From Candidatus Eiseniibacteriota bacterium (lineage in GTDB: Bacteria > Eisenbacteria > RBG-16-71-46 > CAZAMP01), in assembly GCA_965224245.1 (NCBI GenBank), contig OZ245046.1, positions 320,001 to 384,000 of the forward strand: a DNA stretch of 64,000 nt, written 5' to 3'. The position numbers and the translations under genes were made by a program. Positions 5,191-51,926 of the stretch are shown here, piece by piece. The notes beneath the pieces are model-generated. The model did not search any database. It worked only from the letters and a program-made list of their open reading frames with translations, and was not told the origin of the DNA. The stretch's first letter is position 1. Every line of letters begins with the position of its first letter.

Positions 5191-7464
5191 ATGGACGTTC
5201 CCTCGCGCATCGCGCACTACCGTGTGGAAGAGAAGCTCGGCCAGGGGGCCATGGGTGTCGTGTTTCGAGCATTCGACACCCGCCTCGAGCGTCCCGTCGC
5301 ATTGAAGCTCATCGCCGATGGGGACGACTCACCGGCCGGGCGCGCGCGAACGCTGCGGGAGGCCAGAGCCTCGTCCGCGCTGAACCATCCCAACATCTGC
5401 ACGGTGTACGACGCGGCCGAGGAAGGTGCGGTCGCATTCATCGTGCTCGAGCTCGTGGACGGCGAGTCACTATCGAGCCTCGTGAGGCGGCGGCGCTTCG
5501 ACGCGGCGGAGGTGCTCGCGATCGGGCGGCAGATAGCCGATGCGCTCGCCCATGCCCACGCTCGCGGTGTGGTTCACCGGGACCTCAAGTGCGGAAACGT
5601 GGTTCTGACCTCCGACGGAAAGCCCAAGGTCCTCGACTTCGGCCTCGCGGCCGTCACCCCCGAGGTCGCGACCGCGGACGGCGAGACCGTCTCGCTGCGC
5701 ACCTCCAGCACGGCGGGGATGATCGTCGGTACCCTGCCCTACATGTCCCCGGAGGTGCTGCGGGGCAACCGCGCGGATGCGTTCGCCGATCTGTGGGCGC
5801 TCGGCGTGATGATCTTCGAGATGACGACGGGGCGGCTGCCGTTCACCGGCCGTACGCCCTTCGAGGTGAGCGCGGAGATCCTGAGCGGCCGGATTCCGGA
5901 GGCTCACCCCGACACTCCCTCGGGGCTGCGGGATCTGGTCCACCGGGCGCTCGCGCTCGAGCAGGCTCGGCGGTTTCCGGACGCCGAGTCCTTCCGCGAC
6001 GCCATCGGCGCACTCGTCAACTCCGGCGAGGAGCACGCATCCGACGCACGGCCGACGCGCGTGCGATCGCTGGCCGTTCTGCCGCTGCAGAATCTCTCGA
6101 ACGATCCCGGTGAGGAGTACTTCGCCGACGGCATGACCGAGGCCATCACCACGGCTCTCGCATCGGTGCGCGATCTGCGCGTCGTGTCGCGAACGTCGGC
6201 CATCCGGTTCAAGGACGTGTCGCGGCCGCTCCCGGACATCGCCCGCGCGCTCCGGGTGGACGCGATCGTCGAGGGCGCGGTCCTTCGCTCGGAGAGCCGC
6301 GTGCGCGTGAGCGTCCGGCTGATTCACGCCGACGCCGACGAGCTGGTCTGGGCGGGCTCCTACGACCGGGAGCTGCGCGACGTCCTCACGCTTCAGCTCG
6401 AGGTGTCGCGCGCCGTCGTGAACGAGATCGAGGTGGCCGTGAGCGCCGAGGAGCGCGCGCGACTGGACGCGGCCGAGGCGATCGATCCCGAGGCCTACGA
6501 GGCGTACATGCGGGGTCGACACGCGCTCGGCGTGCGCACATCCGCGAGCCTGGTGCGTGCGATCGGTCACTTCGAGTCCGCGATCGACCGGGCGCCGGGC
6601 TTCGCGCCGGCGCTCGCGTCCCTGGCGGAGTGCCACAACGTCCTGGGCTTTCAGGGGGGGCGCCCTCCACGGGACTCGTATCGGCCGGCCGGGGTGCTGG
6701 CGCGCCGGGCGCTGGAGCTCGCGCCCGATCTGGCCCCGGCGTACGTCTCGCTCGGCTACACGGCCCTCCATCACGATCAGCGGTGGCAGGAGTCCCAGGA
6801 CGCGTTCCGGCAGGGCCTTCGGCTCGATCCCGGAAGCGCGACGGGCCACCACTGGTATGCCCTGTTCCACGCCAGCGTCGGTCACCACGAGCTCGCGGTG
6901 ACCACGATGGCGTCGGCTCGCGATCTCGATCCGCTCTCGTCGATCATCGGAACCGCGATGGGCCTCGTGCTCCAGTTCGCCTGCCGGTTCGACGAGGCGA
7001 TCGAGGAGTTCGAGCGGGTCCTGAGCGAGGACCCGGGCTTCTGGGCGGCGGTGGTCTGGCGGGCGATGACGCTGACCTACGCCGGTGAGCCGAAGGACGC
7101 GATGAAGACGCTCCTGCCCGTGCTCGAGACGTTCGGTCGATCCCCGGTCGTGGTCGCCGCGCTGGGCGAGGCGGCGGCGCGCGCGGGGGACGACGCGACC
7201 GCGCGATCGGCGCTGGCGGAGCTCCGGGGACCGTCCCGCGACCACTACGTGCGGCCGTACGATCGGGCGAAGGTGCTCATCGCGCTCGGCGAGCCCGACG
7301 CGGCGCTGGCCGAGCTCGAGCTGGCGCTGGCCGAGGGCGGAAACTGGCTCAACTACCTTCGCGTGGATCGGGCCATGGACGCGCTGCGGGATGACGACCG
7401 GTTTTGTCGCCTTCTCGCCGACGTGTACCGGACGGCACCGGACGCCGGGCCGGACCCCCGCTAG
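5191..7464 (+). CDS. Ser/Thr protein kinase with TolB-N-like domain and TPR repeats (cytoplasmic)
   Basis: LGQGAMGVV, VALK, HRDLKCGN, DFG, YMSPE; SLAVLPLQNLS..EEYFADGMTE (TolB-N-like); TPR helices; no TM segment. Confidence 0.92.
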   Translation: MDVPSRIAHYRVEEKLGQGAMGVVFRAFDTRLERPVALKLIADGDDSPAGRARTLREARASSALNHPNICTVYDAAEEGAVAFIVLELVDGESLSSLVRRRRFDAAEVLAIGRQIADALAHAHARGVVHRDLKCGNVVLTSDGKPKVLDFGLAAVTPEVATADGETVSLRTSSTAGMIVGTLPYMSPEVLRGNRADAFADLWALGVMIFEMTTGRLPFTGRTPFEVSAEILSGRIPEAHPDTPSGLRDLVHRALALEQARRFPDAESFRDAIGALVNSGEEHASDARPTRVRSLAVLPLQNLSNDPGEEYFADGMTEAITTALASVRDLRVVSRTSAIRFKDVSRPLPDIARALRVDAIVEGAVLRSESRVRVSVRLIHADADELVWAGSYDRELRDVLTLQLEVSRAVVNEIEVAVSAEERARLDAAEAIDPEAYEAYMRGRHALGVRTSASLVRAIGHFESAIDRAPGFAPALASLAECHNVLGFQGGRPPRDSYRPAGVLARRALELAPDLAPAYVSLGYTALHHDQRWQESQDAFRQGLRLDPGSATGHHWYALFHASVGHHELAVTTMASARDLDPLSSIIGTAMGLVLQFACRFDEAIEEFERVLSEDPGFWAAVVWRAMTLTYAGEPKDAMKTLLPVLETFGRSPVVVAALGEAAARAGDDATARSALAELRGPSRDHYVRPYDRAKVLIALGEPDAALAELELALAEGGNWLNYLRVDRAMDALRDDDRFCRLLADVYRTAPDAGPDPR

Positions 7465-8422: not shown

Positions 8423-9760
8423 ATGCGGACGCTGACCCTCGCCGTCTCGATCGCACTGTCTATCCCCCGACCGGGCCTCGCCGCCACGTACACGATCCGC
8501 CCCGATGGAACCGGAGACTATCCCACGATCCAGGACGCGCTGGACGTCGCGATCGACGGCGACGTCGTCGAGCTCACCGACGGTCTGTTCGAAGGGGACG
8601 GGAACCGGGATCTGGATCCGCGCGGCGTCGCGGTCACGATTCGCTCGGTCTCCGGCCACGCATCGGCCTGTGTGATCTACCCCGCGAACGCCGGACGCGG
8701 ATTCCTCTTCGACGACGGCGAGGGGCCCGGCACGCGCGTGGAGCGCGTCACGATCTTCGACGGGTTCGCCAGCCGAATCGGTGGCGGCGTGCTCTGTGAC
8801 GGCGCCTCGCCGACGTTCGTCGGGGTTCGCATCGAGAGCTGCCTGGCATCGGCGCCGAGCAAGAGCACGGCGGGAGTCGGCGGCGCGATCGCCTGCATCA
8901 ACGGCTCGGGCCTCGACTTCAGCGACGGCGAGATCGTGGACAACATCGCACAGGCAACGTGGTCGGCGGACGGGGGCGGCATCTACGCCGATGCCTCGTC
9001 GTCGGTTCGTCTCGTGGACGTCGTCCTTCGCGACAATCGCACCAACACGAGCGACGTCTTCGGGGGAACGGGTGGAGCGTTCCTCCTCGGCCCGGCGGAG
9101 CTCGAGCGCGTCGTCGTCGAGAACAACTACGCGCGTGGGCTCTATCTCGGCGGACCGGCGTCGGTCGCATCGTGTGTCATCCGGGGAAATCCCGGGGGCG
9201 AGGGATCGGCGAGCGCCGTGGCAACCGGGTCCGACGAGGTCACGTTCGTCGACTGCCTCGTCTCGGACAACTCGGGACTCGGCTCCGCCACGGTCTCCGT
9301 CGGGGGGGTCGCTCACTTCGTGGCATGCACGATCGCGTCAAACGGAGACACGTACGTGTGGCGCGGCGGTGGAGGGCTGTTCGTCCGCGACGGCGGGGAC
9401 GTGACCCTGCATCGGACGATCGTCTGGGGCAACTGTGCGCCCGGATACGCCGACGACGTCCACGTCGAGCCCGAAGGTGCCCTGTCGGCGACGTGCTCGG
9501 TGCTCGACCCGGACAGGATCGTGGCGCTCGGGACGCTGGAGCTCGCGTCCGACGTCTTCGCCGCCGATCCACTCTTCTGCGGGCCGAGCGCGTGCGACGT
9601 GCGCGAGCCCTACGGCGACTTCTCCCTGGCCGGGGACTCTCCGTGCCGAGCCGAGGCGAGCCCCTGCGGCGAGCGTATCGGGGCGCTGCCCGTCGAGTGC
9701 GGGAGCTCGACGGCGACCCGTCGGACGTCCTGGTCGGGGCTGAGAGATGGCTTCCGCTGA
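8423..9760 (+). CDS. Secreted right-handed parallel beta-helix protein with C-terminal W-motif tail
   Basis: AGGAG RBS; signal peptide; TIRPDGTGDYPTIQDA; GGG(I/V)xC repeats; DPLFC..SPC..CG.IGA cap; tail TATRRTSWSGLRDGFR. Confidence 0.85.
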   Translation: MRTLTLAVSIALSIPRPGLAATYTIRPDGTGDYPTIQDALDVAIDGDVVELTDGLFEGDGNRDLDPRGVAVTIRSVSGHASACVIYPANAGRGFLFDDGEGPGTRVERVTIFDGFASRIGGGVLCDGASPTFVGVRIESCLASAPSKSTAGVGGAIACINGSGLDFSDGEIVDNIAQATWSADGGGIYADASSSVRLVDVVLRDNRTNTSDVFGGTGGAFLLGPAELERVVVENNYARGLYLGGPASVASCVIRGNPGGEGSASAVATGSDEVTFVDCLVSDNSGLGSATVSVGGVAHFVACTIASNGDTYVWRGGGGLFVRDGGDVTLHRTIVWGNCAPGYADDVHVEPEGALSATCSVLDPDRIVALGTLELASDVFAADPLFCGPSACDVREPYGDFSLAGDSPCRAEASPCGERIGALPVECGSSTATRRTSWSGLRDGFR

Positions 9761-9861
9761 CGCGCGGGCCCGCCGCGCACTCCCAGATGCGGATCGTCGA
9801 CGATGTAGGTCTTGAAGCCCGAACACCGTGGTCGGGAGAACCGTCGTTCCCCGATCCCTCG

Positions 9862-12800
9862 ATGCGAGGTGATGTGCTCTCTCGACGCTCAAACACCCGG
9901 TCGATGCTCGGCGTCGCGCTGGGGTTCGTGGCGATCGTGCCGACCATGGACGCGCACGGGCGGACCTGGCACGTGCTCGCGGATGGCACCGGCGACGCGC
10001 CCACCATTCAGGCGGCGGTCGACTCGGCGCAGGCGGGCGACGAGGTGCTCGTGGGGCCCGGCCGGTACGGATGGCGCGGTCAGGGTGCGAGTGGCACCCA
10101 CATGGTCACCGTGGATGTTCCGATCTGGCTCCACTCCGAGAGTGGTGAAGACCTGACGATCATCGATGGCGAGCTCGAGGGCGGTCTGATCCAGGTCGAG
10201 GCGTCCGGTGGAACCACGACGATCGAGGGCTTCGTGCTGACCCGCGGGCGGTACGGCGGTGCCACGGGGTCGGTGGTCCGAGCGGTCGATTCCCGGGTCG
10301 TGATCCAGGGCAATCTCGTGACGTCGTGCTCGGGTGCCACGGTGTACGCGTCCTCGGGCAGCGTCGACGTCATCGACAATCGCTTCACGGGGAACCCGGG
10401 CTACGTTCGCCTCTCCTTCGGCGAACACACGATCTCCGGCAACGAGTTCGTGGGGGGCACTTTCTGGGTGCTGTTCGCGACGTCGACCGACGACCCGATC
10501 GAGATCGCCGACAACGTCTTCGCCGACAACGTGGCCTCACCGATCGTGTGGATGCGCGGTGATGGGGTCGTCGTCCGCGATTGCGTCTTCCGCGACAACA
10601 CGGGCTCCTCGGGCACCGGGATCGTGCACGCGACCTCGGGAAGTCTCATCGGATGCACGTTCGTGGCGAACGACCTGAACGACGGCCCGGTGATCGACGT
10701 CGTCGATCGCGTCCTGATGGATCGATGCATCGTCGCGAACACGCGCGGCGGGCCCGTCGCCCGGGGTGACGCCGGCACCCGCGTCACCGCGCGGTGCTGC
10801 TGCCTGTACGACAACCCCGCGGGTAGCTGGGTCGGTCCTCTCGACGGCAAGGACGGAACGGACGGCAACTTCACGGGGGTGCCGCGGTTCTGCGATCCGG
10901 ACGGAGCGGATTTCCGACTGGCCTCGAACTCGCCGTGTCTTCCCGGCAATCATCCCACGGGCGTGGCCTGCGGTCAGATCGGCGCGCTCGGACCCGGGTG
11001 CGCCGCGATCGAGCCCACGATCTGGCACGTCACCCCCGATGGCACCGGAGACGTGCCCACGATCGGCGACGCCATGGCGCTGGCGCGCACCGGCGATCAG
11101 ATCTGGCTCGATCCCGGCACGTACACGCGAGCCACGGAAGGCACCGCGGCAGCCGATCTCATCACGATGCGACCCGGCGTCCGGCTGCGGGGTCCGGGAG
11201 GGCCGAGCCTGACTCACATCGATGCCGAGGGAAGCGGGCGTGGCATTCGTGTCGCTCTGGGCGACGAGCTGACCGTGGTCGAAGGAGTCACGTTGCGCGG
11301 TGGCAATGCCGACTCCGGTGGTGGCGCGAGTGTGGAGGCGGGGTATGCCCAGTTCGAGAACGTGGTGTTCGAGGACAACGAGGCCGCCGGCTCCGGCGGC
11401 GCGCTGTCGGCGATCGACGCGTCTGTGGTGAGGTTGGAGAACACGCGTTTCGTGTCGAACCACAGTCTCCAGAGCGGTGGGGCGCTCGCGCTCGACGGGG
11501 GTGTGATCGAGCTCGTGGAGTGCGAGTTCTCGAGCAATTCGGCCGACGTCGACGGCGGCGCAGTGACGAACGAGAGAGGCCGGATCGAGGCACGGGAGAC
11601 GTCATTCGTGTCGAACACGGCCGCATCGCGGGGTGGGGCCGTCTTCCTGCGTCGAGGCGCCGTCTTCGAGGCATGCACGTTCCGGCTGAACGACGCGCTC
11701 GAGGGCGGTGCGATCTCCGCACGCGCGTTGACCGATGATGGGGTCACGATCTCCGGGTGCGACGTCGTGTCGAACACCGCCACCAGAGGGGGTGGCCTGC
11801 ACGTGTACGGGCTATGGTCGGGGCGACTCGACGTCGACGGCACGGTGTTCTTCGAGAACTCGGCCGGACAGGGTGGAGGGCTGTACCTCGCGTGGTGTGA
11901 GGATGCGGTTCAGGTGACCGGTACGACGCTCTACGGAAACACGGCGTCGGATGGGGCGCAGCTCTTCGTGCAGTCGGCATCGCCCGGAGTCTCGACCAGC
12001 ATCATCGCCTACGGGACGGGCGGACCGGCGATCGCTTGCGACGACTCGGGGGCCGGCGCCATGCCGTTCTTCACGTGCACCGATGCCTTCGGCAACGACG
12101 GAGGAGACGAGCTGTGCGGGGAGCTCGGCGCCGGCAACTTCTCGGCGGACCCGGCCTTGTGCGGGACGAGCCCGGATCTCCTGGGGCTGGATGCCGACTC
12201 GCCGTGTCTGGCCGGCAGTCACCCGGACGGGCTCGACTGCGGCCTCATCGGCGCGCGCGATCTCGCGTGCGGGGCTGCGCGCAACTTCCTCGTTCTCGCC
12301 GACGGCACCGGAGAGTTCTCCACGATCCAGGCCGCGATGAACGAGGCCGCGAACCGGGACACGATCACACTGGGTGCCGGTGAGTTCCGGGGCGACGGCA
12401 ACCGCGACGTGCACTTCCTCGGCAAGAACGTCATCGTTCGCTCACTGTCGGACGATCCGGCGTCCTCGATCATCGACTGCGAGGGGACCGACACCGATCC
12501 GCACAGAGGCTTCGTGTTCGATGGCCCGGAGGGACGCGTCGCGAGCGTGCGCGTGGTCACGATCCGCAACGGGAACGTCGTGTCACATGCCGATCCCGAC
12601 GGCGGGGCCATCCGGTGCGCGGCCGGGGCATCCCCGACCCTCGACCGCTGCCGGTTCGAGGCCAACGTTGCGATGTCCGGCGGCGCGATCTCGTCGGTGG
12701 CCGGCGATCCGGTCGTCGACGGCGGAATCTTCGTCGACAACGTCGCCATGGACGACGGTGGTGCGCTCCTCCTGGCTGGCTCCGGGACCGTCCGAGGGTC

Positions 12801-13614
12801 ACGCTTCGAAGGCAACCAGGCCCGACGGGGCGGGGCCGTCCACGCGGCATCCGGAGAGGTGACCGTCGACGGTTGCACGCTGGTCGAGAATGCCGCCAGC
12901 GAGAGTGGGGGAGCGCTCAGCGCGATCGACCAGATCCTGTCGATCCGGTCGTCCACCCTCGTCGCGAACGGGGCGCCGGTCGGTGGCGGTGCGTACGCGG
13001 CGGGAGGCACCCTGGACGTCGAGAACACGATCGTCGCCTTCGCCACCGCCGGGTCGGATCTCGCGTGCGACCCATCGACGACAACGATCGCCGTGGTCTG
13101 TTCGGACTTCTTCGGTAACGCCGGTGGCGACTGGACCGACCCCTGCCTCGTCGATCAGCTGGGAGCGGACGGCAACATCTCGGCCGACCCGCTCTTCTGC
13201 GGGGAGTCGCTCGGAGATCGGCGATTCGCACTGCGCGACGACTCCCCATGCGCCGAGTTTGCCACCGCCTGTGGCCGGATGGGGGCCTGGTCGAGTGGCT
13301 GCGAGATCGTGGGGATCGCGCAGGTGCCGGCGATGCCGCGACGTCTCGTACGCGTGGTGCCGAACCCGACCAACCCATCGGCTCGCTTCGTCTTCCACGC
13401 GGAGCCGGCCGGGGCTCCGGTGACGCTCACGATGTACGATGCGCTCGGACGCCGAGTTCGCGAGGTGACCTCGACGACGTCGAGCGCGGGAGAGACGGCG
13501 CTGTTCTGGGATGGACACGACCGGCACGGGAGATCCCTCCCCAGTGGCGTGTACTTCTTCAGGCTCGAGGTAGCGGGGCGGATCGAGACCGGATCGGTTC
13601 GTCTCGTACGGTGA
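9862..13614 (+). CDS. Secreted protein with three tandem beta-helix modules and C-terminal FlgD-Ig/T9SS-like domain
   Basis: Signal peptide; modules begin at 9967, 11023 and 12286 (xxVxxDGTG(D/E)xxTI); GGA(I/L/V) repeats; PNP..YDALGRRV..WDGHD..SGVYFFRL. Start uncertain (9862-9904). Confidence 0.85.
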   Translation: MRGDVLSRRSNTRSMLGVALGFVAIVPTMDAHGRTWHVLADGTGDAPTIQAAVDSAQAGDEVLVGPGRYGWRGQGASGTHMVTVDVPIWLHSESGEDLTIIDGELEGGLIQVEASGGTTTIEGFVLTRGRYGGATGSVVRAVDSRVVIQGNLVTSCSGATVYASSGSVDVIDNRFTGNPGYVRLSFGEHTISGNEFVGGTFWVLFATSTDDPIEIADNVFADNVASPIVWMRGDGVVVRDCVFRDNTGSSGTGIVHATSGSLIGCTFVANDLNDGPVIDVVDRVLMDRCIVANTRGGPVARGDAGTRVTARCCCLYDNPAGSWVGPLDGKDGTDGNFTGVPRFCDPDGADFRLASNSPCLPGNHPTGVACGQIGALGPGCAAIEPTIWHVTPDGTGDVPTIGDAMALARTGDQIWLDPGTYTRATEGTAAADLITMRPGVRLRGPGGPSLTHIDAEGSGRGIRVALGDELTVVEGVTLRGGNADSGGGASVEAGYAQFENVVFEDNEAAGSGGALSAIDASVVRLENTRFVSNHSLQSGGALALDGGVIELVECEFSSNSADVDGGAVTNERGRIEARETSFVSNTAASRGGAVFLRRGAVFEACTFRLNDALEGGAISARALTDDGVTISGCDVVSNTATRGGGLHVYGLWSGRLDVDGTVFFENSAGQGGGLYLAWCEDAVQVTGTTLYGNTASDGAQLFVQSASPGVSTSIIAYGTGGPAIACDDSGAGAMPFFTCTDAFGNDGGDELCGELGAGNFSADPALCGTSPDLLGLDADSPCLAGSHPDGLDCGLIGARDLACGAARNFLVLADGTGEFSTIQAAMNEAANRDTITLGAGEFRGDGNRDVHFLGKNVIVRSLSDDPASSIIDCEGTDTDPHRGFVFDGPEGRVASVRVVTIRNGNVVSHADPDGGAIRCAAGASPTLDRCRFEANVAMSGGAISSVAGDPVVDGGIFVDNVAMDDGGALLLAGSGTVRGSRFEGNQARRGGAVHAASGEVTVDGCTLVENAASESGGALSAIDQILSIRSSTLVANGAPVGGGAYAAGGTLDVENTIVAFATAGSDLACDPSTTTIAVVCSDFFGNAGGDWTDPCLVDQLGADGNISADPLFCGESLGDRRFALRDDSPCAEFATACGRMGAWSSGCEIVGIAQVPAMPRRLVRVVPNPTNPSARFVFHAEPAGAPVTLTMYDALGRRVREVTSTTSSAGETALFWDGHDRHGRSLPSGVYFFRLEVAGRIETGSVRLVR

Positions 13615-13672: not shown

Positions 13673-14362
13673 CTAGGGGGATCCTCCGCCGTACAGCGCT
13701 CTCAACTGCCCCCAGGTCGAGGCACGAACCGGCGTGTCGTTCAGCTCGTCGTAGAGCACGATGAACGCGCTCTCGGCCGCGTACCCGAACAGCGACTCGA
13801 CCGGCACCCAACTCGGGAAGCCGAAGGTCGCGGAACGCACCCACGCCTGCTGACCGTTTCCTTGGCCCGCCGACCACGCCCAGATGGGAGGAGAGCACAG
13901 GTTGGCCACGATCGAGACGAAGTACGACGTGCCCGCTAGCCCCTCGAACGTGTCGGAGGCGACGCAGTAAGAGTACGGCTCGCCGGCCGTCTCGTTGAAC
14001 TCGGTGGTCTCGACCGCGTGCACGACGTCTCCCGGAGAGCCGCCGTCGTTCTCGTAGAAGGTCAACGTGAACGAGTTCGGCGTGATGTGGTCTCCGTAGA
14101 CCTCCTCACCCCACCATCCGACGCCGACCAGCCGGGCTCCCGACATGGTGAACACGAAGTCGTCGGCGCATTCGATCCGGGTCGGGTAGCAGACGTCGTC
14201 GTCCGACAGAAGCGGCTCGCCACCGGTGGGCAGCTGAAACCACTCGACGTCGCCCTCACAGTCGAACACGTCCAGCACGTCGGCAGCGGCGGGACCGGGC
14301 ATGCCGACCGCCACGGCCATTCCGCCCAGCCAGACGAGCCGTGCAATCTGTATCGTACGCAT
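13673..14362 (-). CDS. Secreted hypothetical protein with C-terminal W-motif tail
   Basis: Signal peptide MRTIQIARLVWLGGMAVAVGMPGPAAA; beta-rich body (ADDF, WWG, AGTSYFVSI); tail TPVRASTWGQLRALYGG. Confidence 0.8.
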   Translation of the reverse strand: MRTIQIARLVWLGGMAVAVGMPGPAAADVLDVFDCEGDVEWFQLPTGGEPLLSDDDVCYPTRIECADDFVFTMSGARLVGVGWWGEEVYGDHITPNSFTLTFYENDGGSPGDVVHAVETTEFNETAGEPYSYCVASDTFEGLAGTSYFVSIVANLCSPPIWAWSAGQGNGQQAWVRSATFGFPSWVPVESLFGYAAESAFIVLYDELNDTPVRASTWGQLRALYGGGSP

Positions 14363-21747: not shown

Positions 21748-24390
21748 ATGACGTCCGACCGGCTTCGACGCGCGCGAGCGATCCTCGCGCGGGCACACGA
21801 GGTCGACCCGGCGGAGCGAGAGGCGCTGGTCTCTCGCCTGTCCGAGGGTGACGAGGATCTCCGCCGCGAGGTCATGTCTCTCCTCGCGCACGATGCGCCG
21901 ACCGCCGGGCTGAAGGAGCGGATCGACGTGGACGCCGTGGGCGCGCTCGTCGAGCGCTTGCGGGCGGGTTCGGCTCGAACGCCCGAGCGGATCGGGAGCT
22001 ACCGGGTGATCCGGCTGCTCGGGGAGGGGGGGACCGGAGCGGTCTACGAGGCGGAGCAGCAGAGCCCACGGAGGTCCGTGGCGATCAAGGTGCTCCGTCA
22101 CCGGCTCCTCGACGACTACCGCCGCCAGCTCATCCGGCGCGAGGCGGCGGCGCTCGCACGACTCGATCATCCGAACATCGCCGGCATCATCGAGGCCGAC
22201 GAGGTCGACGGCGAGCCGTTCGTCGTGATGGAGTGTGTCCGGGGCACGCCGCTGTCCCAGTTCCTGAAGGAGCCGGCGGGGCAGGCGCTCTCGGTCCGCC
22301 AGAGGATCGAGCTGTTCCTCCAGATCTGCGATGCCATTGCATACGCCCACCGCCGGGGGGTCATTCACCGCGATCTGAAGCCGTCCAACGTCATCGTCAC
22401 CAGCGAGACCGAGAAGCCGTCGGTCAAGGTGCTGGACTTCGGACTGGCGCGCTTCACCGACGCCGACGTGACGCTGGTCACGATGAGCACCGAGACCGGG
22501 CGCGTGCAAGGGACGCTCGCATACATGAGCCCCGAGCAGGCACGTGGAGATCCGAACCAGATCGATCTTCGATCCGACATCTACTCCCTGGGTGCGATCC
22601 TCTACGAGATGCTCACCGGAGAGCGGCCGAGCCAGCTGTCCGATCGCTCGCTCGCGGAGGCGGTCCGGATCATCTGCGAGGACGATCCGCCGTCGTTGAG
22701 GACGCTGGATCGGACCCTCGACACCGACCTCGACACGATCGCGATGAAGGCGCTCGAGAAGCCTCCGGACCGCCGGTATCAGACCGTGACCGCTCTCGCC
22801 GGCGATCTCACGAGATGGCGCCAACATGAGCCCATCACGGCCAGGCCCCCGACGCTCGCGTACCAGCTGGGCAAGCTGATGCGACGACATCGCCCGGTGT
22901 TCGCGCTGGGAGCGGCGTTGCTGGTGGCCGTGATCGCGTCGGCGGTGGTCACCTCCGTGCTCCTGTACCAGCAGACGCAGGAGCGCGAGCGGGCGGAGCG
23001 GGAGGTCGTGCGTGCCACCCGCGAGGCGCGAAAGGCCGACCAGATCAACGCGTTCCTGCGCGACATGCTGGTGGCGGTGGATCCGCGACGCGAGGGGGCG
23101 GACGTAACGGTGAGAGAGGTCCTCGACCAGGCCGCGCGCGATCTCGTGGGGGCGTTTCCGGACGAGCCCGAGGTCCGGGCGGCGCTTCACAACAGTCTGG
23201 GGCAGGCCTACTACGGCGTGGCGGTGCTCGATTCGGCCCGCACCCACCTCACCCGCTCGATCGAGATTCAGCGTGAGATGCGCGGGGCGGCGGACCCGGC
23301 CGTGGTCAGGGGCCTGGCGGCCCTCGCCACCGTGGCCAGCCGCGAGGCCCGGAATGCGGAGGCGGAGTCCCTCCTGGTGGCGGCGCTGGCCATCGATCCC
23401 GAGAACATGCCCCGCGACGAGACGTTCGAGCTCCAGCAGGAGCTGGCGGTGGTGATGCACGGCCAGGGGAAGACCGCCGAGGCCGCCGCTCAGCTCCGGA
23501 GCGCGATCGACACGTATCGCGCCGCCGGCGGCGCATACAGCGAGAGTCTGCTCCAGGCCCTGACGAACCTCGCCGCGCTGGCCCAGATCCGAGGCGACTA
23601 CGGCGAGGCGGAGACCGCCACGCGCGACGTCCTGGCCCTGGCCAGAGAGCATCACGGCGACGACCATCCGCTGGTGTTCGCCAACCTCTCGAACCTCGCG
23701 CAGCTGCTCTCGCGCCAGCGGCGAGAGGAGGCCGGCGAGGTCTTCGCAGAGGCGCTCGCGCTCGGTGAAGAGGTCTACGGCGCCGAACATCCCGAGGTCT
23801 CGACCTGTCGGAACAACTACGCCGGCTACCTGAACCGCAGCGGTCGCCATGCCGAGGCAGAGGTCCTGGTCCGGCGGTCGATGGAGATCGATCGTCGAAC
23901 GCTGGGGCCGGATCACCCGTCCATCTCGTCGGGCCTTCAGCAGCTCGGGTTCGCGTTGCGGTCGCAACATCGATTTGCCGCGGCCGAGTCGGTGTACGTC
24001 GAATCGGTCAGGATCCGTCGGGCCGCCTACGGGCCCGACCATCCCTCGGTCGCGTACGCGCTCTACGGACTCGGGACGAGCGTGCTGGAGCAAGAACGCC
24101 CCGCCGACGCGATCGAGCCGCTCGAGGAGTGCCTTCGCATCCGACGCGCGCACCATCCGGGTACGACGACCAACGTGGCCCTGCCGGCGTTCCTGGTGGG
24201 CGTCTGCATGGGAGCGCGTGGGTGCAGCGCAGTGGCCGAGTCGCTGATCGTGACGAACGCGGCCGTCATCCTGGATGCCGACCAGACCTCGGACCAGAGC
24301 CGCCGGGACACGCTCCAGCGGGCGATCGACTACTTCGATCGGTGCGACCCGAAGCGGGCCGAGTCTTACCGTGCGCAGCTGACGGAGTGA
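21748..24390 (+). CDS. Membrane Ser/Thr kinase with N-terminal helical extension and C-terminal TPR repeats
   Basis: LGEGGTGAV, HRDLKPSN, DFG, YMSPEQ; TM VFALGAALLVAVIASAVVTSVLLY; G.(D/E)HP-type TPR repeats; immediately downstream of the ECF gene. Confidence 0.93.
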   Translation: MTSDRLRRARAILARAHEVDPAEREALVSRLSEGDEDLRREVMSLLAHDAPTAGLKERIDVDAVGALVERLRAGSARTPERIGSYRVIRLLGEGGTGAVYEAEQQSPRRSVAIKVLRHRLLDDYRRQLIRREAAALARLDHPNIAGIIEADEVDGEPFVVMECVRGTPLSQFLKEPAGQALSVRQRIELFLQICDAIAYAHRRGVIHRDLKPSNVIVTSETEKPSVKVLDFGLARFTDADVTLVTMSTETGRVQGTLAYMSPEQARGDPNQIDLRSDIYSLGAILYEMLTGERPSQLSDRSLAEAVRIICEDDPPSLRTLDRTLDTDLDTIAMKALEKPPDRRYQTVTALAGDLTRWRQHEPITARPPTLAYQLGKLMRRHRPVFALGAALLVAVIASAVVTSVLLYQQTQERERAEREVVRATREARKADQINAFLRDMLVAVDPRREGADVTVREVLDQAARDLVGAFPDEPEVRAALHNSLGQAYYGVAVLDSARTHLTRSIEIQREMRGAADPAVVRGLAALATVASREARNAEAESLLVAALAIDPENMPRDETFELQQELAVVMHGQGKTAEAAAQLRSAIDTYRAAGGAYSESLLQALTNLAALAQIRGDYGEAETATRDVLALAREHHGDDHPLVFANLSNLAQLLSRQRREEAGEVFAEALALGEEVYGAEHPEVSTCRNNYAGYLNRSGRHAEAEVLVRRSMEIDRRTLGPDHPSISSGLQQLGFALRSQHRFAAAESVYVESVRIRRAAYGPDHPSVAYALYGLGTSVLEQERPADAIEPLEECLRIRRAHHPGTTTNVALPAFLVGVCMGARGCSAVAESLIVTNAAVILDADQTSDQSRRDTLQRAIDYFDRCDPKRAESYRAQLTE

Positions 24391-27428: not shown

Positions 27429-30377
27429 TCATCCCGTGCGGAGATCGCGAAGCCGGCGCCGGGCATCCTCGATCTCGGCGATCCGCGGATCTCCGCCGTC
27501 CACGATGGAGAGGAACTGCACGAGCTGCGCGACGGCGTCCTCGGGCCGTCCGACGTTCTGGTAGCAGATGCCCAGGTGATAGTAGGCCCGGGCCGAGTCC
27601 AGGCCACACTGCAGTCTGTCTCCGTCATACCAGGTGACGGTCGTCTCCAGCAGCCCGATCGCCTTCTCCCACTGGCGAGTCTCCACGTAGCAGCGGCCGA
27701 GCGGGAGCCGGGTCCAGATCCAGTTGGCGCTCTGCGCTCTCTCCAGGTAGGAGATGGCCAGGTCCAGCTCGCCCCGGGTCATCTCCAGGTTGCCGCGAGC
27801 GACGTAGTAGTACGCCTGCAGGACGCTCGTCGAGCTGTCCTCGCGAGCGATGTACGGTTCGAGGTATCGATGGCTCTCCTCGACGGCTCCCACCCTGGCC
27901 AGCACGCTGGCGGCGTCGATGAGATCGAAGTCGTTCTCGGGTGGCGCGATCTCGAGCGCCCGATGCACGGCGGCCACGGCGCCGCTCCGATCGCCGATCT
28001 CTTGGAGGAGGAACCCACGCTGCTCGTGCCGAGCCGCCATGGTCTGGGAATGGACGCCTTCCATCTGGTCTACGGTCAGGGCCGCATCGATCTGACGCAA
28101 CGCTTCTTCGACCCGGCCCCGATAGGCCAGCAGCCCGATCAGCCCGGTGCGACCCCTTGCACGGGTCTCCGCGTCGGGACTCGCGAACAGATGGCGGAAC
28201 TGGCTCTCGGCCTTCTCGTAGTCGCCGTGAAACGCGTACATGTCGCCCAGCTTCGCCGCCGACTGGTAGTCGGCGAAGTCCGGCTTCATCTCGACCGCCT
28301 TCGCGTAGGACGCGATCGCCTCCTCGAGCCGGCCGTGCCGCGCGAAGATGTCGCCACGCGAGTCGTACGGGTTCGGCTCGTCCGGTGCCAGCTCGATGTA
28401 CGTGTCGAGCTCGTGGATCGCGCGATCCAGATCGCCCACCGCGCTGTAGGCGTACGCCAGCTCGTTGTGCACGGTCTTGTCGAGCGGATCGAGTGCCAGG
28501 AGCCTCTCCGCGTACTCGATCGCCTTCTCGGGCGGTCCCAGAATGCCGTACGCTTGCCGGAGACCCTCCAGGGCGTGCTTGTCGTCGGGGTACGTCTCCA
28601 GCACACGCTCCAGGGACGCGATGAATCGATCGGGGTCCGACGCCAGCCACGCCTCGGCGCCTTCGAGGTACATCTGCTCCCGGGTCGACGCCCGGTCGGC
28701 ATGTCGGACGGCCTGTGCGAGGTACTTCCGATCTCCTCGAGAACCGCCCAACCCTCCCAGCCGATAGGCGGCCATGGCGAACGTGGAGTCGATGGCGAGC
28801 GCCTGGAGGTACGCGTCCCGGGCCTCCTGGTTGAAGAACTTGCGCTCGTTCTCGATCCCCTCGAGATAGAAGCGGTAGGCATCCTCGGAGTTCGTGGACA
28901 GGCTCGCCACCGAGGGGGTCGTCTCGGCCGCCGACTCTTCCGTACCACCGAGGTCGTCCAGCGTCTCCTCGGTGATCCGGTCGACGAGCACGAAGATCGA
29001 CTCGCCCGGCACGCCGGTCGTCCGCTGAGACGCCACGACGTTGCCCGTCGCCACCTCCACGATCTGAGAGGTGACGACGTAGGCCGGCTCGGCCTGGAGA
29101 ATCGTCCCCTGCATCATCAGCCGGGCGTCGGTCCGCCTGGCCACGTCGGTGGCCGTGTCGCGGTCGATCCGGCGTTCGCCTTCACGCCCCAGCTGCTTCA
29201 AGACGTCGTAGAGGCGCTGGCTGGACACGACCCTCATGTTCGCCGCTTCCGAGAGCCCCGTGATCAGGAGCTCGGACACGATTTCCCCGTGACGCTTCGG
29301 ATCCTCCGGCTCCGCGAGGTTCTCGAAGTACATGATGGCGAGCGTGTTCGTGTCGGCCCCGGCCCCCGGTTCGGGTGTGACCCGGAGCTTCCACGGATCG
29401 AGGATCAGGAACGCCGCGAGCGCCGCGACGGCGACCAGCGCGCCGATCCCGACGCGCGCGTCGACGCGTGGCCTGCCGGGACCGACGGCCCCCACCGACC
29501 CGGTCGACGAGCCCACCTCCACCTGGAGCGACTCCAGCATGTTGGCCACGTCGAGGGCGCTCTGGAGGCGTCTTCGCGGGTCCTTCTCCAGACAGTGCTG
29601 GATGATGCGACCGAGCTGATTGGGGAGCTCGCTCCGGATCGCGGTCACGCTCGTCGGCGTGTCCTTGAGGACGGACGAGAGGCGGGACAGGCTCGTCTCG
29701 CCGTGAAACGGCTGACGACCGGTGGCCATCTCGTAGAGCAGGACGCCCAGCGAGAAGATGTCGGAGCGGGCGTCGACCGGCTTTCCCTCCGCCTGCTCGG
29801 GCGACATGTAGGCGACGGTGCCCAGGACCGTGCCGGCCGCCGTGTCGGGCGAGTCGTCCAGCACCGTCTCCGCCTCCGCCACCTCGTCGTCCGTTCGATC
29901 GAGGAGCTTGGCCAGGCCGAAGTCCAGCACCTTCACGCGGCCCTCGGCATCGACCATCACGTTGGCCGGCTTGAGGTCGCGGTGCGTGATGCCTGCGGCG
30001 TGAGCGCCGTGCACCGCCTCGGCCAGGGGGATGGCCAGATGGAAGAACCGAGAGAGCGGGAAGCCCCCCGACGGGAGCAGCTCGGAGATCGTCTTGCCCT
30101 CGACCAGCTCCATGGTCAGAAAGACGCGCCCGTCGGCCTCCTCGACCGAGTGAAGGGTCACGATGTTCGGGTGCGTGAGGGACGCGACGGCCCGGGCCTC
30201 GCGTTCGAAGCGGCGGCGGCGCTCCTCGTCGTGCGCCACGTCGGCGGGCAGGAGCTTGAGGGCGACGTCACGTCCCAGGCGCGTGTCGCGCGCGCGATAG
30301 ACCTCGCCCATCCCGCCGGCGCCGAGCGACGCGAGGATCGTGTAGCGTCCGAGCTGCGATCCGATCGTCAGTGACAT
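27429..30377 (-). CDS. Membrane Ser/Thr kinase with TolB-N/FlgO-like domain and TPR repeats
   Basis: [65 protein letters not shown]; TPRs. Confidence 0.92.
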
Positions 30378-30760
30378 CCGCCGCAGTCTACCCGAAGACC
30401 CCGGTGCCTCGATACCGCAGTTTTTTGGTCTCGAGCGCGGCCCCAGATGATGCAGACGCATCATGGAACCGCCGGATTCCCCATGGTCCAATGCTCCTGC
30501 GCCGGTGGCCGCATCATCGCTCCGGGCGGCGCCCGGTAGCGCATCTGATTGATCGCCTCGATATCGAATTGCCGCCATGACCCGATGGATCCCGTTCGGA
30601 GTGGCGGCTCGTGCGACACCCGACAACACCCAGCGCCTTGTGAGTCGCGTCGCCGTGGCCGCCCGCATGTCAACCCATCGCAGCTCGCCATGTGCTGCCC
30701 GAGCACCTCCCCCGGTGATCCCTGCGCCCGATCTTCGGTTACCACCACAATCGTGAGGTC

Positions 30761-33707: not shown

Positions 33708-34532
33708 ATGCGACGTCGAGTCACAGGAGGTGCCGTGCTTTCCGTCGGGCTGGCGGGCGCAGTCGCCGGCATTGCCGCCGCGACCGATCTCCTCGAGATC
33801 GACATCGTCCGGTTCGACGCGTCGGGGACGATCCTCCACGAGATCTACTTCGAGGCCAACCGGGACGGGGCGACGACGTGCGACCTCGTCACGCCGCTGG
33901 GTACGTACGTCTGCACCGACGTCGGGGGTCGCTTCCGGGCCGAGCCGGCGTTCTTCGACGAGCATGTGGATCTGACCTTCGCCGAGGTGCAGAGCATCGT
34001 GTCGTCGCCGTGGACCGTGACCTGGGACGCGGGCGCCGGTCAGACGGTCGCGACCCTCGAGCTCGGGCCCATTACGATCGAGGACGTTCCGGCCATTCCC
34101 AGCCTCACCGCGCCGGTGGATGGTGAGGTCATCGAGGTGCCGGCCGACCCGAACCCTCCGGTCGTCACGTGGATGTACGACGGGATCTCCGACCCGTGCG
34201 AGGCGCAGCCGGACCACGTCGTGGTGATCTTCACGGACCAGGAGTCGATCTGGGACGCCACGACCGTGATCGACTCGGGCGAGCTCGCCTGCACGGAGAC
34301 GTCCTGGGAGCCCTCCGAGGCGCTTCCGGAGGGCATCTGGTTCACGGCGGTCGTGAACGCGCTGTCGTTCCGGGACGTGCCGGACGGGATCACGGTGGTC
34401 GAGGGGGACTGGCCGCTCGAGAACACGGACTGGCTGCAGCTGTACGGGGCGGACCGTGTCCACAACGAGGTGATCCCGGTGGAGCGGAGCAGCTGGAGCG
34501 AGATCAAGGCGCGCCATCGCGATCCGAGGTGA
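33708..34532 (+). CDS. Secreted hypothetical protein with C-terminal W-motif tail
   Basis: GGAGG RBS; signal peptide MRRRVTGGAVLSVGLAGAVAGIAAA; acidic beta-rich body; tail IPVERSSWSEIKARHR. Confidence 0.8.
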   Translation: MRRRVTGGAVLSVGLAGAVAGIAAATDLLEIDIVRFDASGTILHEIYFEANRDGATTCDLVTPLGTYVCTDVGGRFRAEPAFFDEHVDLTFAEVQSIVSSPWTVTWDAGAGQTVATLELGPITIEDVPAIPSLTAPVDGEVIEVPADPNPPVVTWMYDGISDPCEAQPDHVVVIFTDQESIWDATTVIDSGELACTETSWEPSEALPEGIWFTAVVNALSFRDVPDGITVVEGDWPLENTDWLQLYGADRVHNEVIPVERSSWSEIKARHRDPR

Positions 34533-34563: not shown

Positions 34564-35292
34564 TCAGAACGTCCGATACACGGACTTGACGCGCGCCCAG
34601 CTGGCCGGCGCGATCGGGGTCTCGCAGTCCTCGACCCAGACCTCGACGTCGTCGATCGCGAACGTGAACGCGTTCGTGAACGACGGCTCGTACTGGAAGT
34701 ACGTGACGTCACCGGTGACGGGCGTCGTGGGCAGGTCCTCCGCCACCACGACCCCGTCGATCAGCAACGTCTGGGTCTGGCCGGCCGTGTCGACGTGCCA
34801 CTCGAAGCAGTTGGCCTGGTCGAGGGTCCAGGAGCCGACCGTCTCCTCCGCGCCCGACGTGAGGATCGTGATCGACGGACCTCGATAGTTGACCGAGCCG
34901 TAGATGCGGCCTTGAGGTCCCCGGAGAACGAAGAACGACGGCGGGATGACGGTGCGTGCCACCGAGCACCACTTCACCACGAAGCGATCGCAGGGGTAGG
35001 CGGTCTCGGGGAAATGGAAGCCCGCCAGGAGCGACCCGGCGCCCCCTTCCTCGCGCTGCATCTCCAGCGGCTGATCGGAGAGCGATCCCGACGACGCGAC
35101 CACCGTGTACGTGCCGGGTGCCGTGGGCGAGACGGTCATGGAGTCCCCATCGGGGGGACCGGGGAGCGAGAGGTCGGGGCTCTCGCCGACGACGTCGGCG
35201 TTGAAGTCCGCCCTGGCGACGAGTGTGAGCTGAGCGGCCGCAGACGCGGGGATCAGCAAGGCGAGCGCGGCCGACAGAGCGAGGCGACTCAT
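34564..35292 (-). CDS. Secreted hypothetical (jelly-roll-like) protein with C-terminal W-motif tail
   Basis: GGAGG RBS; signal peptide MSRLALSAALALLIPASAAA; ends FAIDDVEV..TPIAPASWARVKSVYRTF. Confidence 0.82.
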   Translation of the reverse strand: MSRLALSAALALLIPASAAAQLTLVARADFNADVVGESPDLSLPGPPDGDSMTVSPTAPGTYTVVASSGSLSDQPLEMQREEGGAGSLLAGFHFPETAYPCDRFVVKWCSVARTVIPPSFFVLRGPQGRIYGSVNYRGPSITILTSGAEETVGSWTLDQANCFEWHVDTAGQTQTLLIDGVVVAEDLPTTPVTGDVTYFQYEPSFTNAFTFAIDDVEVWVEDCETPIAPASWARVKSVYRTF

Positions 35293-36195: not shown

Positions 36196-37230
36196 GTGAT
36201 CCAGGTCATCCTGACGGTCATCCCGCTCACGGTCGCCGCGGCGGGCACCGATCCGATCCCCACCGATCCTGTCCCGAGCCACCGTATGTGTCCCGAATAC
36301 GTGCTGAGCTGGGGGGAGCGGGGCGTGGGCCCGGGGAAGTTCCAGGCGCCGCGGGTGGTCGCGCTGGCGCCCGACGGCGACGTGCTCGTGCTCGACACCC
36401 GGTCCTACCGGGTTCAGCGGTTCTCCGCGAACGGCAGCTTCGAGCGCGAGTGGCACGCGTCACGACCCTCCGACGTCGATCCGCCCCACGGGCTGGCCGT
36501 CGGCGACGACGGACGGATCTACGTCTCGCACGTCGGCCGCATCGACGTCTTCGATCCCGAGGGACGTCTGTCCCGGGTGATCGAGATCGAGGGCAACGTG
36601 GGAGCCATCTCGGTGTCGGACTCGCAGGGGATCGCCGTGCTGATCGGGACCCACGAGGTCTGCCGGCTCGCACCCGACGGAGCCGTCCGCGCCCGTTGGG
36701 GTGGCGACGGGGACGGCCCGGGGCAGTTTCGCTGGGCGAGCGACCTCGCGATCGGTGCGGGGGAGGTCGTGTACGTGCTCGATCGTTCCGAGGCTCGCGT
36801 GCAGTGCTTCTCACCCGACGGCGAGCTGCTTCGCGCCTGGGGCGGGCGGGACTACGCAGCCGTGCACCTGCAGCAGCTAGCGGCCATCGCCTGTCATCCC
36901 GATGGCCGGGTCTTCGTCGTCGATTCGCCGAGCAAGCGGGTCCTCGTCTTCGACGCGCTCGGCGAGCTGCTCTGCACCTGGGGCGAGGGCGGACGCACGC
37001 CGGGCACCTTCGACAGGCCCGTGTCGATCACCGTCGGTCCGCTCGGTGTGTACGTGTGCGACGAGGCAAGAGCGCGCATTCAGCTCTTTCGCGAACCCGA
37101 GAGTCGGATCCGTCCGGTGATCTGGCCCGCGGCTCGCCGGTGGCTGAACGCTGAGGACGTCACCGATCCCGAGGTGTCTCGAACGCCGCCGCCCGGTCAG
37201 GCGTCCCCCAGGCCTCGTAAAGACCGATGA
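36196..37230 (+). CDS. NHL-repeat beta-propeller protein, probably exported
   Basis: WGERGVGPGKFQAP, RVQRFSANG, GDGPGQF, RVQCFSPDG, PGTFDRP repeats; hydrophobic N-terminus. Start approximate; the 3' end overlaps the convergent kinase by 71 bp. Confidence 0.8.
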   Translation: MIQVILTVIPLTVAAAGTDPIPTDPVPSHRMCPEYVLSWGERGVGPGKFQAPRVVALAPDGDVLVLDTRSYRVQRFSANGSFEREWHASRPSDVDPPHGLAVGDDGRIYVSHVGRIDVFDPEGRLSRVIEIEGNVGAISVSDSQGIAVLIGTHEVCRLAPDGAVRARWGGDGDGPGQFRWASDLAIGAGEVVYVLDRSEARVQCFSPDGELLRAWGGRDYAAVHLQQLAAIACHPDGRVFVVDSPSKRVLVFDALGELLCTWGEGGRTPGTFDRPVSITVGPLGVYVCDEARARIQLFREPESRIRPVIWPAARRWLNAEDVTDPEVSRTPPPGQASPRPRKDR

Positions 37231-48900: not shown

Positions 48901-49258
48901 TGAGCGCGGCCAGCAGCTGCGCTTCACGTCGGAAGGCGATGAACGCGTTGCGATCGGTGGACAGGACGTCGGGCAGGATCTTCAGCGCGATGCGTCGGCC
49001 GAGCTGAGGGTCTCGCGCGACGTACACGACTCCCATGCCACCCCGGCCGAGCTCACTCAGGATCGGATAGCGTCCGATCGTGCTAGGGTACGAGTCCGCA
49101 CCGAGTGCGATGGTCTCGTCGGACGACGTTGCGACAGTCCGTGCGGTCGCGCCGGCGTCGGGCGGAGATGCAACCTCGGTGTGCGGCGGATCGCCGGCGA
49201 TCGTCGGGATGTCTCCCGTGTCGGCGTCCGGCTTGTCGGGATCGCGACGACTCGTCAT
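45905..49258 (-). CDS. Ser/Thr kinase - STAND (NB-ARC/AfsR-like) ATPase - TPR fusion
   Basis: HRDLKPQN, DFG, YMSPEQ; NNLP..SFVGRE, Walker A GPAGGGKS, Walker B LLVLDNCEH, ATSRE, GIPLALELAAA; TPRs. Confidence 0.92.
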   Translation of the reverse strand: MTSRRDPDKPDADTGDIPTIAGDPPHTEVASPPDAGATARTVATSSDETIALGADSYPSTIGRYPILSELGRGGMGVVYVARDPQLGRRIALKILPDVLSTDRNAFIAFRREAQLLAALNHRNVATVHSLEDADGTIFLTMEFIDGVSLAGWRPDDSGSLEEIVRICRQIAMAVEAAHEQGIVHRDLKPQNVMIRSDGEVKVLDFGIALALESSIEQGAGRDAGNRGGGQIAGTPGYMSPEQIRGAREDARTDVFALGCIIGELLTGRPVFPGSTIRDRLNRTLTVDPELSDCELSPDHPLRLLVMHCLEKDPGARLESMTALRQALEEIQATLRARDGSPGDLGAENNLPASISSFVGRERELSTLVELVAENRLVTVTGPAGGGKSRLTVEVGRELVSTGFDGLWLIELAGLTAAGGIEGAIARVLGVRDAPGQSPLESLQSHLAQRHVLLVLDNCEHVLDDCRRVVRSLLQSCRALFVLATSREPLGESGEVVFPISTLTPPPVDAATCLEDLVDNDAVRLFVDRARAARPEFVLDAENAGVVAGICRRLDGIPLALELAAARLRVLSVDDLDARLVHRFRVLGSRRGQAAGHHRTLRELIDWSYDFLDDTERRMLRYVSVFSGGWTLEAAETVCAVDGIEEWEVLDLISELVSKSLVDVRVADSSTDSTRYRMLETVREYARERLTEAEELADLAMRHAMYFVTLAERAAPELTTSHQVEWLTRLRTDQNNLQRALETLFDTGELGGAARLAGALGRYWVVAGRWQAGRAAYHRLFDAAEPGIDAASALCLSWSGNLAKLQGEYAEARALLERSLDIRRQLGEPTAVAESLNNLGNVLRDLGEWDAAEAHYRESHRTYEAVGNEGGVALALNGLGAVAFLTGRLEDARAAYTESLAIRRRQGDRNNVAASLNNLATVEEATGNLAQAGTLLDECLSILRELGDRSGIATALNNLGRLARAAGDDRCAIEHYEESLRMFRELGNRSSVAIVLLNLVAITVDSRDESETRALLAESLLTVQEFGDERLITDAIQQAVRLARRSDDPARAATLLASWDDRTRAAGSHTLPQISEFLNENRTALERALGAEAFSAAWNRGRSLDRDTAILVATGATD

Positions 49259-51663: not shown

Positions 51664-51926
51664 GTGGGCGCTCCCTGTTCCTGCACGTCTGAAGCCTACC
51701 ACGTGGCCCGGCGAGGCGGAGGCATCGGTGACCGGAGCACCGGATGGGGCGGGGCCTCCGGTACGATACTCAACACCCATCATCGCAGTCGATTGCACGT
51801 TTCGGCCCGGCATGCCACGATTCGGGCTCGGAGATGTCGTCTCTGGGTACGGTGACGCCGGCTCGACGTTGCACGCTCGGTGGATCACGACGCCGGCGCC
51901 CACGTTGCCGAAACGAGGACTCACCA

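Follow-up and report, generated by a model that had tools for sequence, protein, structure and literature searches.

A 16-residue C-terminal tag that alternates with a type IX-like C-terminal domain on beta-helix proteins of an Eisenbacteria genome

The closest described counterparts of the protein ends considered here are the C-terminal domains (CTDs) of type IX secretion system (T9SS) cargo and the tripartite C-terminal signals. The T9SS type A CTD is represented by TIGR04183 and PF18962, with PF13860 as an FlgD-Ig-like form, and the accessible part of a study of Prevotella intermedia describes long signals and short CTDs of 43-55 amino acids (aa) within one genome, sharing the cleavage motif PT/GI (PMC11969387). 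Tripartite signals (PEP-CTERM, GlyGly-CTERM, and MYXO-CTERM) are, in the available portion of their description, C-terminal, numerous per genome, attached to unrelated passengers with signal peptides, and marked by signature residues (bioRxiv 10.1101/2023.06.07.544157). Here, a stretch of 64,000 nucleotides (the window) from a Candidatus Eiseniibacteriota bacterium (GenBank assembly GCA_965224245.1, contig OZ245046.1, positions 320,001 to 384,000 of the forward strand) is considered for two adjacent genes, gene 1 and gene 2 (Table 1), in which related beta-helix modules lead into different C-termini: a 16-aa tail with a Trp (the W tail) in gene 1 and a T9SS-like CTD in gene 2. An original prediction, made from the sequence alone, held that the two tails are functionally interchangeable and that this pair is the best internal evidence for the short tail being a sorting signal. 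The switch of tails is real and repeated, and the equivalence was overstated; the W tail is in all probability a C-terminal sorting tag, it matches no catalogued family that was compared, and its reader is putative.

Both tail classes were counted by profile search in the six-frame open reading frames (ORFs) of the 6.94-Mb source genome, which is 97% complete. With seeds drawn from the same genome, 121 ORF ends reach at least 18 bits with the W-tail profile, whereas no control segment reaches even 14 bits, which puts the tail beyond chance. The CTD profile finds 470 ORFs; no ORF carries both, and the two classes are mutually exclusive. The consensus of the W tail is [TV]P[VTI]xxx[ST]W[GSA]x[ILV]KxxY. 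It is a portable element whose passengers sort into 57 clusters, and it is short, basic, and aromatic, tolerates up to 32 residues after the Trp, and contains a membrane-like hydrophobic window of 17 residues in one of 121 cases. Among the best 150 of 806 library matches, the last motif lies 7-15 residues before the end in 150/150. Synonymous codons vary at Ser/Thr and Gly; thus, the motif is constrained at the protein level, and a DNA element is ruled out. W carriers are small and contain 2.6% Cys as against 1.1%, and a crude signal-peptide rule passes 78/117 W, 293/446 CTD, and 863/1976 background ORFs. The beta-helix module itself is recognizable by its head or cap in 51 ORFs of the genome, and the 32 with both comprise 14 W, 17 CTD, and one with neither tail. 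The genome also contains a 5025-aa ORF with 17 tandem modules and a CTD, a giant adhesin-like protein (G000:C1:1238737-1253814).

In the window, the original prediction placed one module in 8423-9760 and three in 9862-13614 with starts at 9967, 11023, and 12286; the heads at D41, D393, and D814 make these starts exact. The two endings had also been read correctly, gene 1 closing in the 16-aa tail T430-R445 and gene 2 in an FlgD-Ig CTD (PF13860, TIGR04183). Gene 1 has its DGTG[DE] head at residue 28 and one Cys cap, with 19 residues after C426, and gene 1 and gene 2 alike match the beta-helix family PF13229. Gene 2, for which the codon model makes a start at the ATG at 9904 possible, extends 103 aa beyond its last Cys. 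These residues match PF13860 (E 1e-9), the C-terminus reaches TIGR04183 marginally (23.3 bits, cut-off 23), and the CTD matches the PorU CTD 6za2 no better and no worse than FlgD 3c12 (E 1e-4). A single-sequence AF2 model, poor for module 3 except in the CTD, predicts an Ig-like beta-sandwich with strands at a predicted local distance difference test score (pLDDT) of 76-87, and this domain aligns with the FlgD Ig at Z 9.4 (root-mean-square deviation 2.3, 84 residues aligned). No T9SS CTD chain stands in the top 50 rows of the structure search with the gene 2 CTD, which were taken by beta-helix matches.

The AF2 model of gene 1, built with 40 W-class rows, has a mean pLDDT of 91.5 and a core above 90, while residues 429-432 fall below 50 and the helix at 437-443 lies at about 60. 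Structure prediction agrees with the original view of the W tail as an appendage; it is best modeled as detachable and separate from the beta-helix cap, and it is also found on unrelated folds. The module resembles Pel9A, PL6 lyases, and tailspikes at 8-14% identity (template modeling score 0.26-0.42); at such identity, the likeness to Pel9A and PL6 shows no activity. As modeled, it is an ordinary exported right-handed beta-helix, with a polysaccharide-binding, lyase-like, or adhesin fold by likeness only.

Switching of tails among homologues, which follows from the original prediction, is borne out by tabulation and by a tree. The 118 outside homologues of gene 1 comprise 36 with W tails, 32 with CTDs, and 50 that are incomplete, sub-threshold, or end otherwise. 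A tree of 96 terminal modules, excluding eight internal modules and one tail-less module, contains 22 tail changes, nine of them forced by starred branches, as against 32.2 in shuffles; without five long-branch rows, 20 changes remain. A single split between W and CTD is rejected by the approximately unbiased test (p 0.0036 and 4e-5) in two random 32-row subsets (16 W and 16 CTD) drawn after the five long-branch rows were dropped. A tree of 40 modules from the source genome alone is poorly resolved, with 10 changes against 11.7 shuffled and only two forced. Tail class is the same in 15/15 module pairs of at least 50% identity, and below 45% the classes mix about evenly. Thus, the tail has switched repeatedly and yet is inherited. 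Among the 57 W clusters, seven can be matched to a CTD protein as far as both junctions, and in five of these seven cross-class pairs the head of the W tail aligns by eye with the CTD tripeptide; of the other two, the pair formed by the present module has the head at an offset, and the last shows none.

The neighbors in the window contribute little to this picture. The gene 1 module shares 28-29% identity with modules 2 and 3 of gene 2, gives no match to module 1, and is nearer to other W proteins than to any gene 2 module, and the pair, 29% identical and not nearest relatives, is on these alignments a weak witness of switching. The closest swap in the genome is instead a tandem of M43 metalloproteases, one with a W tail and one with a CTD, which are 51-53% identical (G000:C1:4291911-4295094, L142). 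Because the window neighbors are distant paralogues and the M43 pair is closer, the window pair is wrongly called the best internal evidence. Another pair of neighbors with one W tail and one CTD, at G000:C1:1439552-1441766 (L143), shares 34% identity as far as the junction.

Interchangeability finds no support in the size of the cargo. With start codons estimated by the codon model, the median W passenger is 210 aa long, 1/117 exceeding 500 and 0/117 exceeding 600, whereas the median CTD passenger is 611 aa long, with 228/446 over 600. All five multi-module proteins end in a CTD. In two other genomes, 20 regions from each yield 26 and 21 W ORFs, with maxima of 407 and 413 aa, and among the best 150 of the 806 library matches, many of which are fragments, one exceeds 500 aa (692 aa). 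Given this ceiling, the five of five multi-module proteins with CTDs, and the concordance of the 15 close pairs, functional interchangeability of the tails is not supported. What stands of the original reading is the detachable appendage and the repeated switching; in addition, several unrelated families have their junctions in register. It is proposed that the W tail serves small single-domain cargo, up to about 500-600 aa, as a second address and is no equivalent of the CTD.

The register at the junction is seen as a tripeptide, [TSVI][GAPS][VI], within eight residues of the last Cys in 32/50 W and 18/40 CTD proteins (in shuffles, on average 5.2 and 5.0 and at most 14 and 12) and in 0/6 internal modules, mostly at an offset of 2-3. 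W heads read TPV or VPV, and CTD tripeptides VGV, VAV, or TGV. The distance from cap Cys to Trp is 9-10 residues in 34/38 module proteins. The tail of gene 1 scores lower than most others of the genome (20.0 bits), having no Pro and carrying Arg for Lys and Phe for Tyr. The head is present in 96/124 unselected tails, as against 5/24 tails of one predicted lipoprotein family, a contrast that comes from a single family whose members are not independent. In this family, 19/27 homologues carry the W helix by the strict pattern, mostly without the head, which would be rare there if lipoproteins need no new anchor. Its members are P0242, P0250, and P0392-P0418, with an NTF2-like lead. Judged by its residues, the W tail appears bipartite, with a head in register with the PorU-like cleavage tripeptide of the CTD and a TWGxIKxLY helix that can be used without it. 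An amphipathic membrane helix was considered and rejected, as the moment is no higher than in shuffles (0.36 vs 0.37).

The slot after the passenger domain also receives other occupants. Among 121 M43 sequences, it holds three W tails, 36 CTDs, and 82 other ends, and a tree of 34 rows, three of them W, has two changes, one forced. One M43 homologue carries a GC-type dockerin in the same slot. As the slot accepts W tails, CTDs, dockerin, and other ends, it is a general targeting position, and the shared position, as read from these sequences, shows an envelope-targeting slot and not one common route. A second short tail, approximately IFxDGFESGDxSxWS, fills it in 19/121 M43 sequences (P0126, P0128, P0168, P0196, P0237, and others); it is absent from the source genome, has no NCBIfam match in the four proteins scanned, and is possibly an analogous tag of another lineage. 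In many M43 homologues (P0124, P0130, P0187, and others, one from Planctomycetota), the slot holds a C-terminal domain of about 125 aa ending near LTNAxDL, for which two scanned proteins gave no NCBIfam match.

The source genome encodes SprA, PorU, and seven PorV-family loci over cut-off. The strict tail pattern matches 99/121 genomes of the phylum, and 40/43 chosen ones match tail patterns. SprA is found in 43/44 tail-rich genomes, PorU in 43/43 genomes (33 over cut-off) and in 12/12 further tested genomes with true tails, and secretins in 43/44 tail-rich genomes, none over the GspD cut-off. A collection scan yields at least 129 stretches with the tail pattern, with five chance matches among the 80 that are titled, which include Eisenbacteria, Krumholzibacteriota, and Latescibacterota. 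Exosortase (PF09721) is found in only 29/44 tail-rich genomes and is missing from some that are 98-100% complete, in a search that left rhombosortase and CPBP-type sortases outside. The W tail presumably has a likeness to IPTL-CTERM. Kinship with IPTL-CTERM or PEP-CTERM was rejected, as no tail matches the models and exosortase is missing in 15/44. The genome does hold about six PEP-CTERM proteins, with an exosortase beside PEP-CTERM genes at G000:C1:4810237-4814560, as a third, separate sorting system; one of six PEP-CTERM passengers weakly matches W passengers (24-27%).

In all likelihood, the tail serves as an address or docking tag for the envelope rather than as a structural element. How it is read may be pictured as follows. 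The slot after the last Cys of the module would be filled either by a T9SS type-A-like CTD of about 100 aa or by the tag of about 16 aa. The tag head, [TVS]-[PAS]-[VT], stands where the CTD linker has V/T-G/A-V and resembles a T9SS sortase cleavage site, and the tag helix, [ST]WGxIKxLY, would be a docking motif for an envelope receptor. After Sec export of the cargo, the helix may be bound by an adaptor of a reduced T9SS, a PorV-family barrel or its partner; the cargo would then pass through SprA, and PorU would process it at the head in the case of soluble cargo only. That a reduced T9SS reads the tail, with PorU acting at the head of soluble cargo, has in our estimate even chances. The portability of the tag, its exclusion of the CTD, the junction register, the size bias, and the presence of SprA, PorU, and PorV are observed; export, the reader, and the cleavage are inferred. 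A broader scheme is held more tentatively and is somewhat unlikely: Eisenbacteria and neighboring uncultured phyla would have a motor-less T9SS with two cargo classes, one bearing an Ig-like CTD at any size and the other, small proteins and lipoproteins, bearing the 16-residue helical tag with its own adaptor, both presented to one sortase through the junction tripeptide. Candidate readers of the W tail are encoded in a porU-porV operon at G000:C1:2561916-2576105 (L132), followed by two unannotated ORFs and an NHL protein; the locus also encodes a protein of 1224 aa, one stretch of which is weakly SprA-like, and a member of the Omp85 family. A candidate energizer in place of PorLM is an operon at G000:C1:4762688-4772760 (L134) with a CTD protein, a PorV with an extra Ig domain, a tetratricopeptide repeat (TPR) protein weakly matching PorW/SprE, an ExbB/TolQ-like gene, two ORFs that are ExbD-like by likeness, and TonB. 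Complex prediction with the porU-linked PorV (26-row alignment) and the tail (56 rows) scored 0.00 with controls unfolded and is counted neither way.

Several observations weigh against reading by a T9SS. GldM (TIGR03517) is found in 0/3 genomes of the source group as against 2/2 Bacteroidota controls, although a diverged homologue could escape the model, so the host system is not a canonical T9SS; for GldN (TIGR03523), the search gave no match while its positive controls were also silent, and it left PorK and PorL outside. Co-occurrence does not discriminate, as these genomes are kin and secretins are equally common in them. No tail-rich genome without SprA and PorU was found among the genomes examined. 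Family f6 had seemed poor in tails (7/26 with the first pattern), but the pattern without Pro finds them in 23/26, at 0-5 matches each and with PorU present, so there is no clean tail-negative group. Since the tail-rich genomes are kin, co-occurrence excludes exosortase and cannot choose between a T9SS and a secretin route. The tail itself shows no similarity to 470 CTDs (best 5.7 bits) and, being 16 aa and predicted helical, is without the beta-strand motifs B, D, and E, which the accessible text of PMC11969387 describes as the PorV-bound part of the CTD. At the putative +1 position, Pro occurs more often than any other residue (67/124 unselected tails, 112/121 in the source genome), whereas for P. 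intermedia the available portion of the same study gives the cleavage consensus PT/GI, in which +1 is preferably a small residue, and does not list Pro among those tolerated (PMC11969387). For P. gingivalis, PorU cleavage is described, in the part of the source available, as sequence-independent (PMC4804311). The narrow base of the lipoprotein head contrast, noted above, counts on the same side, as do P0242, with four tandem copies of the W helix, and P0250, with an extra copy near the N-terminus right after a lipobox-like Cys; such copies and lipoprotein carriers fit plain docking better than a cleaved signal. In that alternative, the helix would be a T9SS-independent, non-covalent docking or anchoring peptide that is never cleaved and that holds lipoproteins and small exported proteins on a scaffold, an S-layer, or some other partner in the envelope, either within the periplasm or once a secretin (T2SS-like) route has exported them. 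Beyond the extra copies, it would accommodate the head-less helix on lipoproteins, Pro at +1, the widespread secretins, and the dockerin in the M43 slot, yet it leaves the register between head and CTD tripeptide unexplained, sits poorly with a last motif so close to the end in all 150 best library matches, and in its secretin form meets no secretin over the GspD cut-off. It is judged rather unlikely.

Other roles for the tail have less to recommend them. Self-association of tagged proteins into oligomers, a lattice, or a vesicle coat would suit the roughly 120 small, Cys-rich carriers per genome and the tandem repeats; the passengers, however, are unrelated in fold across the 57 clusters and the tail core is no more amphipathic than shuffles, which makes this very unlikely. 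Just as improbable is a role as a C-terminal degron, or as a handle by which a periplasmic protease or chaperone would govern turnover or folding: a strictly C-terminal, short, basic, and aromatic tail would be apt, but the W tail takes the place of a secretion domain at one and the same junction and tolerates the long extensions after its Trp. That the beta-helix cap includes the tail as an integral part, or that both tails are fully equivalent, is largely refuted and exceedingly improbable. The fixed Cys-to-Trp spacing would be expected of a cap element, whereas the linker and helix are modeled with far lower confidence than the core, the cap also precedes a CTD or another module, and the same tail occurs on unrelated folds; full equivalence is opposed by the strong size bias.

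The window contains further genes of both kinds (Table 1). Three W-tail genes have no Pfam match, among them the convergent neighbor of gene 2. Six genes are of the Ser/Thr kinase-TPR type, four confirmed by Pfam and two read from sequence, with extracytoplasmic function (ECF) sigma factors nearby and CTD cargo genes interspersed. Between 8100 and 14500, there are no promoter-like or terminator-like sites.

Table 1. Gene pair, modules, tails, and other genes of the window (window coordinates).
Feature	Position	Strand	Remarks
Gene 1 (P0001)	8423..9760	+	445 aa; signal-peptide-like start, single beta-helix module, W tail
Gene 1 module	8483..9700	+	Head DGTGD; right-handed beta-helix; C426 closes the Cys cap
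Gene 1 W tail	9701..9757	+	Head tripeptide T430-T432 (9710-9718); helix around W437 (9731-9733)
Gene 2 (P0002)	9862..13614	+	1250 aa; three modules and FlgD-Ig CTD
Gene 2 module 1	9967..11001	+	Head D41, cap end C380
Gene 2 module 2	11023..12270	+	Head D393, cap end C803
Gene 2 module 3	12286..13302	+	Head D814, cap end C1147; 29% identical to gene 1 module
Gene 2 FlgD-Ig / T9SS type-A-like CTD	13303..13611	+	Junction tripeptide V1150-I1152 (13309-13317), in register with W-tail head
Convergent neighbor	13673..14362	-	Unrelated family, likewise W-tailed; no Pfam match
W-tail gene	33708..34532	+	No Pfam match
W-tail gene	34564..35292	-	No Pfam match
Kinase-TPR-type gene	5191..7464		
Kinase-TPR-type gene	21748..24390		
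Kinase-TPR-type gene	27429..30668		
Kinase-TPR-type gene	37160..39664		
Kinase-TPR-type gene	45905..49258		
Kinase-TPR-type gene	51744..55514		

The beta-helix genes themselves are ordinary, and the interest lies in their ends. Carried by about 120 proteins, the portable tag labels much of the exported proteome of uncultured bacteria related to the Fibrobacterota-Chlorobiota-Bacteroidota (FCB) group, and the swap data give testable rules: the junction, the size ceiling of about 500-600 aa, and the head-less use on lipoproteins. If a T9SS reads the tail, cargo would be recognized without a beta-sandwich by a system that runs without the Bacteroidota motor, and a 16-aa display tag would be a useful tool. 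To our knowledge, no other T9SS signal is as short as the 16-residue helical tag would be in that case, and no earlier one is helical. No description of the W tail was found in the literature covered, which excluded most subscription journals and all supplements. The 55 W tails compared with Pfam and NCBIfam sorting models gave no match, the W-tail profile found none among PDB sequences at E 10, and an atlas search with cap and tail gave a best value of 0.89, a lead only.

Among the known systems, the passenger has the fold and repeats of right-handed beta-helix proteins (PF13229; Pel9A, PL6 lyases, and the Chlamydia Pmp-type repeats, PF02415) but differs in its low identity to solved structures and in its lineage-specific DGTG head and Cys cap. 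The W tail is like the tripartite CTERM signals in position, number, variety of passengers, predicted signal peptides on these, and signature residues, and unlike them, as far as their accessible description goes, in the rarity of a transmembrane helix (1/121) and in the patchy exosortase (bioRxiv 10.1101/2023.06.07.544157). P. intermedia's short CTDs retain three beta-strands along with motifs B, D, and E in the available part of their description (PMC11969387), whereas the W tail is one third as long and unrelated in sequence; it falls outside a definition of T9SS CTDs by at least three beta-strands with these motifs and at least 40 aa. The host has the T9SS components SprA, PorV, and PorU and no detected GldM motor. 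With the T9SS type A CTD, which the tail of gene 2 matches, the W tail shares the slot, a similar opening tripeptide, and co-occurrence with SprA, PorU, and PorV; it differs as a predicted helix of 16 aa with no beta-sandwich, carried by small cargo and also by lipoproteins.

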